4,055 nt of DNA, from IMG/VR virus record IMGVR_UViG_2690316099_000008; one strand, given 5' to 3'. Source of the DNA: a virus (taxonomy: Duplodnaviria; Heunggongvirae; Uroviricota; Caudoviricetes). Positions 1 through 4,055 of this stretch are shown here, piece after piece. The position numbers and the translations under genes were made by a program. Position 1 is the first letter of the stretch. The number at the start of each line of letters is the position of its first letter. Below the pieces are notes generated by a model. The model ran no database searches. It saw only the letters and a list, made by a program, of their open reading frames with translations, and was not told the origin of the DNA.

Positions 1-31
1 TCGCTCGCTCTCACCACTGAGCTAAAGGGCC
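1..31 (-). tRNA. 5' portion of a tRNA gene running off the left edge (acceptor-stem strand, D-arm, start of anticodon stem). Resembles Ile(CAU)-type tRNAs found downstream of Q in lambdoid/Stx-type phages; the anticodon lies outside the window.
   Basis: Minus strand from coordinate 31 reads GGCCCTT-TA-GCTC-AGTGGTGA-GAGC-G-AGCGA: 7-nt acceptor strand, U8, GCTC/GAGC D-stem with an 8-nt D-loop containing GG, then the anticodon-stem 5' strand. Similarity to Ile-type tRNA is from memory, not a search. Confidence 0.55.
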
Positions 32-68
32 GGGAGCAGAATAATAACGGTCCGTAATTAATTCCGCA

Positions 69-96
69 ATAAAAAACCCGCTCGGCGGCGGGTGTC
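69..96 (-). terminator. Rho-independent terminator, distal copy: GC-rich hairpin followed by a T-run on the minus strand.
   Basis: Minus strand reads ACCCGC-CGCCGA-GCGGGT followed by TTTTTTAT. The 25-nt core is identical to the copy at 170..197. Confidence 0.6.
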
Positions 97-169
97 GAAA
101 AAGCCAGCAAGCTGAAAGACAGGTATTCACCGCCACCAGCGCGTTTACTGTACTGACGCGATTTCAGTC

Positions 170-197
170 ATAAAAAACCCGCTCGGCGGCGGGTTGT
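170..197 (-). terminator. Rho-independent terminator, proximal copy (tR'-like), about 40-65 nt downstream of the predicted late transcription start.
   Basis: Minus strand reads AACCCGC-CGCCGA-GCGGGTT followed by TTTTTTAT (7-bp stem, 6-nt loop, U-tract). It sits immediately downstream of the Q gene and the pR'-like promoter. Confidence 0.6.
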
Positions 198-230
198 AGA
201 AACTCTTCTAACGTCAGGCATAAAACGCCC

Positions 231-270
231 ATCGTTATGACGAATTTACCACAGATTCCGGAAAAATCAA
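231..270 (-). promoter_or_regulatory. Lambda pR'-like late promoter with a sigma70-dependent pause element; the Q-utilisation region.
   Basis: Minus strand: -35 TTGATT (270..265), 16-nt spacer ending in TGg (extended -10), -10 TAAATT (248..243), 6 nt, then AACGAT (236..231) followed by GGG. As I recall it, lambda pR' has the same TAAATT-N6-AACGAT-GGG arrangement. The predicted start falls on the Q stop codon. Confidence 0.6.
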
Positions 271-1089
271 CCTAGTTACCTTTTTTAACTGCCGCTCAGC
301 CCATGCTTCTTCAATATCAAACCGGGTCACCAGCGCATCATAAAATTTCTTAACTGTTTTTTCCCATGACGCGCGTGTTATCTGGTTTGTCACCTCGCAT
401 ATAGCATTAAATGCCTCCGTTGATGGTAGTCTTTCATAGCCACGACCACCACAACGCTGGCAGTCTCTGATAACAGGCATACCACGTTTTACCGACTCTT
501 CACGATGAATGGCGACACCACGCCCACGGCAATCCTTACAGGCGGTGGAAACCTCACCCTTTCCGCCACACTCCGGACAGGCAACTTTTACCACCTCCCT
601 GACTTTTTTCCATTCTTCCCAGTAAGACGGATACACACCTTTCGTACACTTTGCCCATACCGGCGGCTTACCATCCGGATACTGGACCTTGTTTGTAAAA
701 ACTACGCTTTCAATAAATTTTTCCCCATAGCAACAAGGGCACTGCTTTTTACTCGCTGCGCTGCGGGCATAATCCTCAAAAGCGTACGAAGCCATAATGC
801 GCATCACTACCGGTTTTATTTCTGCCGGAAGTTTTCTCAACGCCGCCACACGATCGCACCGACTGAGTGCATAATCTGCCAGTAATTCTGTTGCCCGCGC
901 CCTGTCATTCATACTGATGCCCATTTTCCCCAGGAACGCAGAAAACCCCATCTCAGCCCGATTCTGTGTCATGCCCTGCGCGGCCATCACATCAGTGATA
1001 CTCAGCGCATCTTTCGACGTTGAGGCCGATGCATCAGTCAGGCCGGGGGATTTTGGGGAGTAGTATTTCGGTAAATCTTCCAGTTTCAT
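235..1089 (-). CDS. Q: Late-gene antitermination protein Q-like (284 aa) with a Cys-rich zinc-binding region.
   Basis: Intact 284-aa ORF. Position is diagnostic: directly downstream of rusA (ATGA start/stop overlap) and directly upstream of a lambda-like pR'/pause element and terminator. Contains CPCC plus three CxxCxGxG repeats (aa 117-213). Family assignment rests on synteny and recalled similarity to Q82/QuuQ-type prophage antiterminators, not on a search. Confidence 0.7.
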   Translation of the reverse strand: MKLEDLPKYYSPKSPGLTDASASTSKDALSITDVMAAQGMTQNRAEMGFSAFLGKMGISMNDRARATELLADYALSRCDRVAALRKLPAEIKPVVMRIMASYAFEDYARSAASKKQCPCCYGEKFIESVVFTNKVQYPDGKPPVWAKCTKGVYPSYWEEWKKVREVVKVACPECGGKGEVSTACKDCRGRGVAIHREESVKRGMPVIRDCQRCGGRGYERLPSTEAFNAICEVTNQITRASWEKTVKKFYDALVTRFDIEEAWAERQLKKVTRLIFPESVVNSS

Positions 1090-1460
1090 TTTTTGACCTG
1101 CTCTTCATGCATTATGGGGTAAATCTTCACCCCCAGACGTCCACCAGATACTGGCTGACCACGAACGATATTGATTTCATCAAACTGCTCATCGTCCATT
1201 AACACTCCCGCATGTGTCAGTGCATCCAGTGGTGCTTTCAGGATATTGTCCAGGTCACGACGGCGCTTATCCGGTGGCTCTGCAATAATCTTTATCGCCA
1301 GTCTTCCGGACAGGCTTAATTTCAGTCGCTGCTGACGGACAATAAGCGCCACATCCCGGCGATAACGCTCACCGGCTTTTGATACAAAATATGTGTTGTC
1401 ACGACGTCGCCAGTAAGTATTCACCGTCGGCGGATAAGGTAAAATAAACTCATGGCGCAT
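1086..1460 (-). CDS. rusA: Crossover junction endodeoxyribonuclease RusA (Holliday junction resolvase), 124 aa, intact.
   Basis: Translation carries RusA hallmarks: LPYPPTVNTYWRR near the N-terminus, the acidic catalytic block PDKRRRDLDN...LMDDEQ, and GGRL near the C-terminus. Its stop overlaps the Q start (ATGA) and its start overlaps the upstream gene stop (TGATG). Confidence 0.85.
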   Translation of the reverse strand: MRHEFILPYPPTVNTYWRRRDNTYFVSKAGERYRRDVALIVRQQRLKLSLSGRLAIKIIAEPPDKRRRDLDNILKAPLDALTHAGVLMDDEQFDEINIVRGQPVSGGRLGVKIYPIMHEEQVKK

Positions 1461-1717
1461 CAGCGCAGCACCTCCTGCACCAGTTTTTCAAACTTTCCGA
1501 CTCTGGTTTCCAGCTCTGCCACACAGTCCACCAGCTCATCTACTGCTTTCTGTGCGCGATGCTTCGCCTGCATCAGTTCCCGAAGCGCGGGTACCATATC
1601 TTTACGGATAGCGTCTTTTGTTATGCCCGTTTTTTCGAGTTGTTCAGCATGACGCAGCATTTCCTGCGCGTGTTTACGCAATTGTTCAGGGGTAAAAGTC
1701 ATTGTCTGGTTGTTCAA
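1460..1717 (-). CDS. Conserved hypothetical protein, 85 aa, helical and charged (likely coiled-coil), function unknown (copy 1).
   Basis: ORF conserved in two diverged copies in this window: by hand count about 30 nt differences over 258 bp but only 6 aa changes, i.e. mostly synonymous. Translationally coupled to rusA. The start may be TTG at 1717 (GGAG about 8 nt upstream) or the internal ATG at 1702. Confidence 0.7.
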   Translation of the reverse strand: MNNQTMTFTPEQLRKHAQEMLRHAEQLEKTGITKDAIRKDMVPALRELMQAKHRAQKAVDELVDCVAELETRVGKFEKLVQEVLR

Positions 1718-1837
1718 AAGAAACGCTCCATCTTACTGCTGTCAGTTCGTTTATTACTGTATCTGCGCGGATTGCCGGGCTTCATGGGAGTGGAAAGCAC
1801 CCGTGCACTTTCCTGGTCCACAGGCAGAAAATGTCCG
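1714..1837 (-). pseudogene. 3'-terminal fragment (last 41 codons) of a second DnaB-family helicase gene, truncated at its 5' side by an IS2 end.
   Basis: Minus-strand translation GHFLPVDQESARVLSTPMKPGNPRRYSNKRTDSSKMERFF* aligns in frame with the C-terminus of the intact helicase at 2292..3683. The IS2 left terminal repeat begins at 1838. Confidence 0.6.
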
Positions 1838-1879
1838 TAGACTGGCCCCCTGAATCTCCAGACAACCAGTATCACTTAA
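1838..1879 (+). mobile_element. IS2 left terminal inverted repeat (outer end at 1838, element interior to the right), followed by a single n at 1880; the element body is absent from the sequence.
   Basis: TAGACTGGCCCCCTGAATCTCCAGACAACCAGTATCACTTAA matches the IS2 left end as I recall it. The flanking sequence switches abruptly from helicase 3' end to mid-rusA across the n. Confidence 0.75.
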
Positions 1880-1880
1880 N

Positions 1881-2038
1881 CTTCCGGACAGGTTTAATTT
1901 CAGCCGCTGCTGGCGAACAATTAGCGTCACATCACGGCGATAACGCTCACCAACTTTTGATACAAAATATGTGCTGCCACGACGTCGCCAGTAAGTATTC
2001 ACCGTCGGCGGATAAGGTAAAATAAACTCATGGCGCAT
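1881..2038 (-). pseudogene. rusA: 5' part (first ~52 codons) of a second rusA copy, truncated by the IS2 end / n junction.
   Basis: MRHEFILPYPPTVNTYWRRRGSTYFVSKVGERYRRDVTLIVRQQRLKLNLSG... matches the N-terminus of RusA at 1086..1460. The six-frame ORF continues through the n into IS2 sequence, so the 94-aa ORF is chimeric. Confidence 0.7.
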
Positions 2039-2295
2039 CAGCGCAGCACCTCCTGCACCATTTTTTCAAACTTTCCAACTTTGGTTTCCAGCTCTGCCAC
2101 ACAATCAACGAGCTCATCCACCGCTTTTTGTGCGCGATGTTTCGCCTGCATCAGTTCCCTGAGCGCTGGCACCATATCCCGACGAATGGCATCTTTTGTT
2201 ACACCTGTTTTTTCCAGTTGTTCCGCCTGTCGCAACATTTCCTGCGCGTGTTTACGCAATTGTTCAGAGGTAAAAGTCATTGTCTGGTTGTTCAA
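2038..2295 (-). CDS. Conserved hypothetical protein, 85 aa (copy 2 of the 1460..1717 gene).
   Basis: 93% aa identity to copy 1 (6 substitutions, mostly conservative) despite about 88% nt identity. TTG start overlaps the helicase stop (TTGA) with GGAG about 8 nt upstream; alternative ATG at 2280. Confidence 0.7.
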   Translation of the reverse strand: MNNQTMTFTSEQLRKHAQEMLRQAEQLEKTGVTKDAIRRDMVPALRELMQAKHRAQKAVDELVDCVAELETKVGKFEKMVQEVLR

Positions 2296-3683
2296 AAGAA
2301 ACGCTCCATCTTACTGCTGTCGGTACGTGTATTGCTGTATCTGCGCGGCTGGGGCTGCCGCATTGGGGTGGAAAGAACCTGTGCGCTTTCCTGGTCCACA
2401 GGCAGAAAATGTCCGTTATAAAAACGCCGGTAAATCGTCCCCAGAGAACCGTTACGTTGTTTCGTGATATTAATTTCTGCTATGCCTGTAGCCTGTGTAT
2501 CCGGGTTGTACACTTCATCCCTGTAAAGCATCAGAATGATGTCTGCATCCGCCTCTATTTCTCCGGAATTTTTCAGGTCTGAGTTCATGGGACGTTTATT
2601 GGGTCTGGACTCCACACCGCGGGAGAGCTGGCTCAGCGCAATCAACGGAAAACCACCGGATTTTGCCAGGCCTTTAAGCCCCTTTGAGATTTCACCCACG
2701 GCAAGGTCATGACGCCCCGTGGTTCGGGTTTTTATCAGCCCGAGATAATCAACCACCACCAGCGCCGTTTCCGGATGTTTAATCAGATGGTGTTTCGTTG
2801 TTGCGCATATCTCATCAATGGTCAGGTTCGCCTGGTCCACCATCCAGATATTGCGCCCGGTCATCCGCCCCACCCCTTGTGAGAAACGCGCCCAGTCTTC
2901 ATCTTCAAAGTGAGCCACAGATTTCAGGCGTGATACTGGCATCCCTCCAGCCGCAGACACCATACGTTCACCAATCTGGATGTTCGCCATCTCCATGGTG
3001 AACAGAAGCACACCATGCCCCTGCTCAGTCACCTTGTCGATGATGTCCAGCGCAAGTTCGGTTTTCCCCATCGAAGGACGGGCGGCAATGAATACCAGGT
3101 CTCCGGGCTCCATACCGCCTGTTTTTGCGTCCAGTTCATCAATACCGGTCATCAACGTCCTGGATTTCTCCAGCCCCTGATTCCGGCATTCAACACGCTC
3201 AACCACTTCCGGAAGCACATCATCAATATGTACCGGCTGAATGACGCCCTTTCCTGTCGACAGTGTGACCATCATGTTCTGCGCATCCTTCAGGGCATCT
3301 TCAGCTGCTTCACAGGTATGCGCATCACGTAATTTCTGCAGCGCCTCATTCAGTGTTTTTTCTGCATCGCGCAGTGCGGCATTGCGCCGCAACGCTGCAA
3401 CATAGTGCTCCAGTGAAGACTTCACCCAGGTTTTACGCCCGGTATCAGTAATCACCGGGGCAAGTTCCGGCATCTCATTACACAACAGCACGGGGTCAAT
3501 CACTCCTGAAACACGGGCCTGTCTGCAGATGCCTGTGTAGATATCCCGATACGCTCGTACAGAAAAAATGTCCGCCGGTAGTGTGATCAGAATATCCATC
3601 ACTTCATGATCTGCCCCACGCAGAAAGAATGCGCCAATGACAGCGCCTTCCAGGTCATCATTACGCCAGACTGGTGTTGTCAT
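2292..3683 (-). CDS. DnaB-family replicative DNA helicase, phage-encoded, 464 aa from the ATG at 3683.
   Basis: Walker A GDLVFIAARPSMGKT; DnaB C-terminal domain blocks (VVVDYLGLI, LSQLSRGVESRPNKRPMNSDLKNSGEIEADADIILMLYRDEVY, KQRNGSLGTI); DnaB N-terminal domain similarity. GAGGTG Shine-Dalgarno 7 nt upstream of the ATG. The longer 510-aa ORF in the track starts at a GTG inside the IS2 end and is rejected. Confidence 0.85.
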   Translation of the reverse strand: MTTPVWRNDDLEGAVIGAFFLRGADHEVMDILITLPADIFSVRAYRDIYTGICRQARVSGVIDPVLLCNEMPELAPVITDTGRKTWVKSSLEHYVAALRRNAALRDAEKTLNEALQKLRDAHTCEAAEDALKDAQNMMVTLSTGKGVIQPVHIDDVLPEVVERVECRNQGLEKSRTLMTGIDELDAKTGGMEPGDLVFIAARPSMGKTELALDIIDKVTEQGHGVLLFTMEMANIQIGERMVSAAGGMPVSRLKSVAHFEDEDWARFSQGVGRMTGRNIWMVDQANLTIDEICATTKHHLIKHPETALVVVDYLGLIKTRTTGRHDLAVGEISKGLKGLAKSGGFPLIALSQLSRGVESRPNKRPMNSDLKNSGEIEADADIILMLYRDEVYNPDTQATGIAEINITKQRNGSLGTIYRRFYNGHFLPVDQESAQVLSTPMRQPQPRRYSNTRTDSSKMERFF

Positions 3684-3787
3684 GCAGCCACACCTCTGAT
3701 ACAAGAACGGTAGCTGGGCCAGTTGAACGACAACCAGTTGCGCCCCCCGTCTGTGATCCTGTCGGCAATGCGGGGGCTGATGAACGC

Positions 3788-3840
3788 TGGATTTGCCCCT
3801 ATATTTCCAGACACCTGTTATCACTTAACCCATTACTGGC
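3788..3840 (-). mobile_element. IS2 right terminal inverted repeat (outer end at 3788, element interior toward higher coordinates), running into the N gap.
   Basis: Plus strand TGGATTTGCCCCTATATTTCCAGACACCTGTTATCACTTAACCCATTAC is the reverse complement of the IS2 right end as I recall it. It lies 104 bp upstream of the helicase start codon. Confidence 0.75.
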
Positions 3841-4022
3841 NNNNNNNNNNNNNNNNNNNNNNNNNNNNNNNNNNNNNNNNNNNNNNNNNNNNNNNNNNNN
3901 NNNNNNNNNNNNNNNNNNNNNNNNNNNNNNNNNNNNNNNNNNNNNNNNNNNNNNNNNNNNNNNNNNNNNNNNNNNNNNNNNNNNNNNNNNNNNNNNNNNN
4001 NNNNNNNNNNNNNNNNNNNNNN
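3841..4022. other. Assembly gap (182 N).
   Basis: Run of n characters; presumably the collapsed IS2 body and/or unknown sequence. Confidence 0.95.
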
Positions 4023-4055
4023 ACCGCCTGCTTTCTGATCTACCGCAAATGCTAA

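Follow-up and report, generated by a model that had tools for sequence, protein, structure and literature searches.

Shigella genomes are rich in insertion sequence (IS) elements and pseudogenes. IS2, a member of the IS3 family, is an element of ~1.3 kb with overlapping orfA and orfB, from which a DDE transposase is produced by a -1 frameshift. It is bounded by imperfect terminal repeats, namely a left inverted repeat (IRL) of 42 bp and a right inverted repeat (IRR) of 41 bp (PMC3299598). Its internal promoter, PIRL, is weak and is repressed by OrfA, and Pjunc requires a spacer of exactly 17 nucleotides (PMC3299598). An outward-facing -35 element in the IRR of IS2 has also given rise to fusion promoters at ampC (Jaurin & Normark 1983) and acrEF (PMC9330008), and such promoters require a correctly spaced -10 element in the flanking DNA (PMC9330008). 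In the present work, an IS2 end located next to a phage replication gene was examined. A first-pass annotation had taken this end as an insertion into the gene upstream of a DnaB-like helicase. We show herein that the gene in question is a DnaC-like helicase loader, and that the IS2 most probably marks the boundary of a rearrangement.

The window (the whole stretch of 4,055 nucleotides that was analyzed) belongs to a draft scaffold, and its DNA is discontinuous (Table 1). All phage genes in it lie on the minus strand. From high to low coordinates, contig B carries the IS2 end, a 35-codon gene remnant, a 463-aa helicase gene, an 85-aa open reading frame (ORF) and the 5' part of a RusA gene. No tRNA gene was found in the window by ARAGORN. 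Contig ends fall inside repeats, and contig B itself stops 53 nucleotides into IS2. The 33-nucleotide yejO tail matched neither IS2 nor the loader nor ypjA (the gene on the other side of the element, see below). Little weight was given to the order of the source scaffold, because closed genomes do not have this tail within 8 kb of the junction, and because the scaffold also fuses loci that are ~1.7 Mb apart.

Table 1. Features of the window, with coordinates counted from its first nucleotide.
Feature	Position	Strand	Basis or remark
Contig A	1-1879		joined to contig B via a single n at 1880
IS2 left end, 42-bp IRL, different copy	1838..1879	+	IS2 nt 1-42, 41/42 bases
Contig B	1881-3840 (1960 nt)		carries the IS2/loader junction
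RusA gene, 5' part, cut by contig end	1881..2038	-	123-aa RusA in closed genomes
85-aa phage protein, conserved, function not assigned	2038..2295	-	phrog_2565, 5e-31
DnaB-family replicative helicase, 463 aa, intact	2292..3683	-	DnaB_C, TIGR00665, phrog_19
DnaC-like loader, 3' remnant, codons 258-292 (35 aa) + TGA	3680..3787	-	gapless alignment to intact prophages
IS2 right end, last 53 nt	3788..3840	-	identity to IS2 nt 1279-1331
IS2 IRR, 41 bp	3788-3828		within IS2 right end
insD/orfB stop codon TAG	3801-3799	-	within IS2 right end
Scaffold gap, 182 N	3841..4022	none
Contig C	33 nt after gap		yejO fragment

The reverse complement of the right end was identical, at 53 of 53 bases, to the end of the 1331-bp IS2 of E. 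coli 504239, and the same 53 nucleotides recur at ≥99% identity in 3003 E. coli records that carry an IS3-family transposase annotation. Terminal inverted repeats of IS2 were found at both ends present in the window (53/53 on the right, 41/42 on the left). In the E. coli 504239 reference, the transposase coding sequence stops 11 nucleotides short of the end of the element, on the strand equivalent to the minus strand of the window. From the strand and position of this coding sequence, it follows that the interior of the IS2 extends toward higher coordinates and that the element is co-directional with the helicase gene; the first-pass annotation, which placed the outer end of the IRR at 3788, had read both points correctly.

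Contig B was 100% identical in nine of the ten loci returned by the search, and these include at least seven closed or near-closed chromosomes, among them HE616528.1, which is that of Shigella sonnei 53G (PMC5447701). On sequence identity, the window can be assigned to S. sonnei. At the identical junction, the closed S. sonnei genomes carry a full IS2 of 1331 bp (97.4% identity to the E. coli copy, no indels), with intact orfA (121 aa) and orfB (301 aa) and with the Pfam domains HTH_Tnp_1 and rve. The element of ~1.3 kb with both ORFs is therefore present in closed genomes, and its body is hidden by the gap in the window; the gap position is occupied there by the other 1278 bp of IS2 and then by a truncated ypjA. 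The closed genomes thus disclose a complete element, and not the lack of an IS2 body that the first-pass annotation had named as an objection to its own reading.

On the IRL side, the closed genomes contain the first ~455 codons of the autotransporter adhesin gene ypjA/ehaD (Pfam AIDA, 1.2e-46; 99.6% nucleotide identity to the annotated E. coli gene), whose reading frame runs into the IRL and then stops (...SALVA-RLAP, stop). The neighborhood of ypjA is normal, with an amylase-like gene, ypjC and a pinH remnant. For the source isolate, whose contig ends 53 nucleotides into IS2, this flank is taken from the identical S. sonnei genomes. A 5-bp target-site duplication, which the first-pass annotation had expected to be identifiable, is absent: the 5-mers outside the element are GTTGC on the IRL side (ypjA) and GCGTT on the IRR side (loader), giving GTTGC-IS2-GCGTT. 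A control copy, the E. coli 504239 reference, shows a perfect TAGAC/TAGAC duplication. The mismatch leaves the identity of the element as IS2 unaffected; it argues that the two flanks were joined by a later rearrangement.

Between the IS2 end and the helicase ATG lie 104 bp (3684-3787). This interval is open in the frame that translates to AFISPRIADRITDGGRNWLSFNWPSYRSCIRGVAA followed by a stop codon, a TGA (3682-3680) that overlaps the helicase ATG (3683-3681) as ATGA. The spacer, the open frame and the overlap, all of which had been described before, were reproduced by translation. The earlier suggestion that this frame is the C-terminus of an upstream replication gene, either an initiator or a helicase loader, held for the second of these two guesses, as profiles and a structural match identify a DnaC-like loader. 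Megablast of the helicase region returned homologous prophages in 352 E. coli genomes, where directly ahead of the helicase lies an 879-bp "ATP-binding protein" gene that has the ATGA overlap and is preceded by an initiator-like gene; the intact loader is found in homologous E. coli prophages and Stx phages. In two intact prophages (L001 and L002), the 3' end of the 879-bp gene aligns with the remnant without a gap. The breakpoint in the alignment is sharp: the window tracks IS2 to ...CAAATCCA and the intact prophages from GCGTTCATCAG on, and before this point the intact prophages read loader coding sequence ...CCGGAAGAGTTGTGG. The last codon lost is number 257 of 292. Since the coding sequence of the intact prophages is continuous through the breakpoint, neither a gene end nor an intergenic region occurs there, and the objection that the interval might simply be a natural gene boundary does not hold.

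An intact homologue of the loader (L001, 5230-6108) was used for the profile tests. It matched phrog_50, a DnaC-like helicase loader, at 1.9e-89, Pfam IstB_IS21 at 1.4e-15 (above the cut-off), and E. coli DnaC (PDB 6QEL) at 3e-30, with residues 88-289 aligned to DnaC 46-242. These matches place the intact homologue in the DnaC/IstB-like loader family across its AAA+ domain. It also matched the NCBIfam DnaC profile at 1.7e-38, with 132.6 bits vs a cut-off of 357, so that the intact phage loader is not a DnaC equivalog. Its length of 292-293 aa is conserved in Escherichia, Shigella, Salmonella, Enterobacter, Klebsiella and Citrobacter. The break in the alignment with DnaC falls between T210 and K211, and the remnant corresponds to DnaC residues 211-245 (...GERVMDRMRLGNSLWVIFNWDSYRSRVTG), a segment that presumably includes the arginine finger R220 and the C-terminal sensor region. 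A complete loader ORF, with Walker A/B motifs as well as the arginine-finger/sensor region, is not present; the window holds residues 258-292 alone, and the part with the Walker motifs is missing from the locus in closed genomes. With the arginine finger and sensor separated from Walker A/B, the remnant and the missing part would each be useless alone. The stretch 3680-3787 is a gene remnant and does not encode a functional loader. The exact remnant peptide, including its SYRSC variant, is already annotated in drafts as "ATP-binding protein, partial [Shigella sonnei]".

The losses at this locus go beyond the loader. In closed genomes, neither the 5' part of the loader gene nor an initiator gene was found within 8 kb on either side of the junction. 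Absent at the locus are the integrase, the immunity region, the initiator and 88% of the loader, and the remnant retains helicase, RusA, Q, lysis, terminase and portal genes. The first-pass annotation had called the replication module probably defective; with initiator, immunity region and most of the loader missing, this judgment was sound and, indeed, understated. Among 5426 complete E. coli genomes, none gave a match spanning the junction (best coverage 81%, ending at the IS2 boundary), so the junction is not a polymorphism shared with E. coli.

How the junction arose can be judged from its two sides. One history would be a single insertion of IS2 into the loader of a prophage that is complete in all other respects, in which case codons 1-257 should lie beyond the element behind a GCGTT duplication, and the truncated loader should end ...PEELWAF-RLAP and a stop at 263 aa. 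The window by itself invites such a reading, as the break interrupts the coding sequence of a gene that is otherwise conserved and the contig, which ends in IS2, is blind to the other side. However, every closed genome with the identical contig has the ypjA flank and mismatched 5-mers, the 5' sequence of the loader is not within 8 kb in these genomes, and no 263-aa loader fragment from S. sonnei is among the homologues and cluster members listed. The flanks being unrelated and the 5-mers different (GTTGC vs GCGTT), the junction is not the product of one insertion into the loader; such an event is contradicted in 53G and six other assemblies, and it is very unlikely for the source isolate. The earlier claim that an upstream gene had been cut by the insertion therefore stands as far as the loader is truncated at IS2, and falls as far as it implied a simple insertion in place, given the ypjA flank and the lack of a duplication.

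Instead, the full IS2 very probably constitutes the left boundary of an Stx-related lambdoid prophage remnant, in the arrangement ypjA'-IS2-'loader, created by insertion and a subsequent IS2-associated rearrangement. One IS2 would have inserted into the loader gene and another into ypjA. The simplest step thereafter may have been homologous recombination between the two copies, resulting in a deletion or an inversion; a deletion adjacent to IS2 could have served as an alternative step. Either way, the rearrangement would have removed or relocated the integrase, the immunity region, the initiator and codons 1-257 of the loader. The late genes of the phage point away from ypjA. On the K-12 map, a prophage integrated at ssrA would presumably show the opposite orientation of its late genes, a comparison that hints, if weakly, at an inversion or translocation. 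Exact-pattern scans for the reciprocal junctions (loader 5'-GCGTT-IRL and IRR-GTTGC-ypjA 3') gave no matches, in collections in which the observed junction was also unmatched; these scans covered genome and metagenome contigs, apparently without S. sonnei.

The composition of the scaffold raises a further question, namely whether the junction of IS2 with the loader is itself an artefact of assembly or scaffolding at a chimeric contig end. False adjacencies do exist in the window, where the n at 1880 fuses loci 1.7 Mb apart, and the contigs end in repeats. However, the junction is internal to its contig, and independent assemblies, both closed genomes and drafts, show it without a single base of difference; on this evidence the artefact is refuted, with practically no probability left to it.

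The false adjacency concerns the second IS2 end of the window, on contig A. Its sole mismatch to the IRL, a G at position 32, is an S. sonnei variant. Contig A carries a paralogous set of genes at ~89-90% identity, consisting of the last ~37 helicase codons, an 85-aa ORF, RusA (1086-1460, paralogous to the RusA of contig B) and a 284-aa Q-type antiterminator. Homology between the two contigs ends exactly at 1837/1838, and this second IS2 cuts the paralogous helicase at the equivalent of 2415/2416. An exact look-up of RusA located contig A at 1.31-1.33 Mb in strain 53G, vs 3.06-3.08 Mb for contig B, a distance of ~1.7 Mb; the IS2 copy of contig A is split in 53G by IS21. An exact look-up of the 284-aa Q-like protein returned short contigs in other contexts only. 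A single IS2 bearing both ends of the window was considered and rejected, as the flanks differ (GTCCG vs GCGTT) and the loci are 1.7 Mb apart in 53G. The two ends had been held, on account of their opposite orientations, not to be those of one simple insertion; this proved right, mainly for the reason that unrelated loci were set side by side by scaffolding.

The helicase gene itself is well preserved. Its product matches Pfam DnaB_C at 7.8e-73 (245 bits vs a cut-off of 27) and phrog_19 at 3.6e-115, and the DnaB N-terminal domain scores 22.3 bits, slightly below the cut-off of 23. TIGR00665 (DnaB; 7e-92, 308 bits) and TIGR03600 (phage_DnaB; 274 bits) are matched under their equivalog cut-offs; as judged from these profile scores, the protein is a member of the DnaB family and not a DnaB equivalog. 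Compared to the best homologue in an E. coli prophage, the gene is of equal length, without indels, at 96.9% nucleotide identity, and a Shine-Dalgarno-like sequence, AGAGGTG, is located 8 nucleotides upstream of the ATG. An extended helicase ORF of 510 aa, reaching into IS2, is spurious. The exact 463-aa protein occurs in 3506 blocks of public assemblies, closed chromosomes included. The 85-aa protein encoded downstream is labeled "hypothetical" in every one of the homologous prophages. The best phage matches, at ~91% across initiator, loader and helicase, were to Escherichia phage ASU11 and to Stx1a-, Stx2a- and Stx2d-converting phages.

With the Walker A/B half gone from the locus, the loader would be non-functional, and the prophage would probably be unable to replicate autonomously. 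The helicase gene would likewise be deprived of the phage early promoter and of translational coupling. The early promoter being lost, any transcription of the helicase must start upstream, and it would probably be limited to weak read-through from IS2 or from upstream genes. The first-pass annotation had raised the possibility that helicase expression now depends on read-out from IS2; this is possible but unsupported, and is at present speculation. Several features would suit a junction of this kind, in which IS2 transcription, through a fusion promoter or by read-through from the transposase gene, keeps the orphan DnaB-like helicase expressed: the element is co-oriented with the helicase, the orfB stop codon is 115 nucleotides upstream of the helicase ATG with no terminator-like hairpin between the two, the intact helicase ORF has its own Shine-Dalgarno-like sequence, and the IRR has formed fusion promoters elsewhere, at ampC and acrEF (PMC9330008). 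However, a consensus scan detected no sigma-70-like site in 3500-3840. When the IRR hexamer TGGAAA was taken as the -35 element, an assignment inferred from the geometry of Pjunc, the flanking hexamers at 16, 17 and 18 nucleotides were GCGTTC, CGTTCA and GTTCAT, none of which has an A at position 2 of the -10 element, and the best total was 7/12 by hand scoring. A -10 element at the correct spacing (~17 nucleotides) is therefore lacking, and a fusion promoter at the IRR junction was rejected as a candidate, as neither the consensus scan nor manual hexamer scoring gave anything usable. The exact 17-nucleotide spacer of Pjunc and the weakness and OrfA repression of PIRL (PMC3299598) also speak against such a role, and conservation of an ORF in a young clonal species is no sign of selection. 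There is little chance that the junction is functional. Nor is a fusion protein formed, since the orfB frame differs from those of both the loader and the helicase. It is highly improbable that the orphan helicase is kept expressed by IS2 read-through for the benefit of the host, for example by interference with incoming lambdoid or Stx phages; if true, a host-beneficial helicase would account for an intact ORF in thousands of isolates.

As a whole, the locus is an instance of the ordinary decay of a dead prophage by IS elements, and nothing in it is mechanistically new. Closed genomes in the public databases already contain the junction, and the NCBI label of the remnant is already that of a partial ATP-binding protein. 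The first reading needs only one substantive correction, as the IS2 lies at the boundary of a rearrangement and was not simply inserted in place. The biological weight of this is small, one further case in which IS elements have driven gene loss and eroded a prophage in S. sonnei, a species noted for IS expansion, for pseudogenes and for eroded prophages. The practical lessons lie in the traps for annotation and assembly that are typical of such a locus (a contig break at an IS2 end, false scaffold joins and a spurious 510-aa ORF) and in the advice that, where an IS end lies beside a gene fragment, the target-site duplication be checked before a simple insertion is assumed.

Compared to known systems, the element is a typical IS2 of the IS3 family in its termini (identical at 53/53 bases on the right and 41/42 on the left), its length of 1331 bp and its usual orfA/orfB arrangement; the junction copy differs in lacking the usual 5-bp direct repeat and in having unrelated genes, ypjA and a phage loader, as its flanks. 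As in the IS2 fusion promoters of ampC and acrEF, the IRR faces the downstream gene in the activating orientation; unlike them, the junction offers no usable -10 element at 16-18 nucleotides, and the gene start is 104 bp away. The remnant shares with E. coli DnaC (PDB 6QEL/6QEM) the motifs R-x-x-DR and FNW-SYRS, whereas the intact phage loader, of 292 aa vs 245 aa, has a longer N-terminal region, and the SYRSR of DnaC and of intact phage loaders is SYRSC in the remnant, where C replaces R. The lambdoid and Stx replication modules (for example, those of Stx2_EH2201 and ASU11) have the same gene order of initiator, DnaC-like loader and DnaB-like helicase with the same ATGA overlap, and ~91-97% nucleotide identity to the helicase and loader remnant; here, however, the last 35 loader codons stand alone and the initiator gene is missing from the locus. 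Finally, the picture agrees with that of IS-driven pseudogenization and prophage decay in Shigella, in that a chromosomal adhesin gene and a prophage have both been cut short by a multicopy IS. The window also contains another prophage remnant, cut by a different IS2 copy, and only the particular genes that were hit set this case apart.

The window was found to be a scaffold of three contigs, with joins at 1880 (a single n) and at 3841-4022 (182 N). In the closed genome of S. sonnei 53G, some 1.7 Mb separates contig A (1-1879) from contig B (1881-3840), and the join at 1880 is therefore a false adjacency. The 182-N gap in turn replaces at least 1278 bp of IS2. Further features are listed in the table.

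Features of the window and of the related S. sonnei loci
Feature	Coordinates	Strand	Remarks
Second IS2, left end	window 1838-1879; L022 (locus with this IS2) 4275-7623		truncates the paralogous helicase gene of another prophage remnant
Conserved 85-aa protein, phrog_2565	window 2038-2295 and 1460-1717	minus
Hairpin AAAAAACCCGCTCGGCGGCGGGT, two copies	window 71-93 and 174-196		3' of the Q-type gene
Antiterminator, 284 aa	window 235-1089	minus	two PF03589 (Antitermination protein Q) stretches
ypjA/ehaD, autotransporter adhesin, truncated	L007 (53G locus with the contig B junction) 5202-6581		cut by the IS2 of the contig B junction
yejO, autotransporter gene, internal fragment	window 4023-4055		33 nt 3' of the gap; 100% identity to many E. 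coli genomes

On the chromosomal side of the contig B junction, ypjA/ehaD retains about 455 codons before IS2, and its frame stops as RLAP* within the left inverted repeat (IRL) of the element. In closed genomes the yejO fragment has no relation to this IS2 junction; another IS insertion could possibly account for a contig that begins inside this gene. The second IS2 breaks the paralogous helicase gene about 37 codons ahead of its stop, and in closed S. sonnei genomes this copy is itself split by IS21 (istA/istB) between IS2 nucleotides 156 and 203.

The 85-aa protein invariably separates RusA from the helicase, start and stop codons overlapping, and carries no family annotation. Besides its Q domains, the 284-aa antiterminator matches a DnaJ-type CXXCXGXG zinc-finger; the other prophage remnant encodes a different, unrelated Q protein (128 aa, PF06530). 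Relative to 53G, about 100 bp around the hairpin are duplicated in tandem in the window (repeat unit ~100 bp; 101-169 extra). Further downstream of the Q-type gene, window 1-33 (minus strand) is about 92% similar to a stretch 3' of Q in the other remnant; it resembles a phage-borne tRNA gene that is interrupted by the window edge, with its 5' half inside. ARAGORN called no tRNA at 1-33, because the putative gene is truncated.

The helicase frame remains open upstream through the loader remnant and into IS2, up to a GTG at 3824 (window 3683-3824, minus strand). A spurious ORF of 510 aa is thereby produced, which gene callers could misread as a helicase with an N-terminal extension. The loader remnant itself reads SYRSC (codon at window 3695-3697, minus strand), a single CGT-to-TGT change that is common to the S. 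sonnei annotations P0171 and P0172 (both 'ATP-binding protein, partial'); the corresponding motif is SYRSR in the aligned intact E. coli prophages L001 and L002, in two other loader sequences (P0138 and P0145), and in E. coli DnaC.
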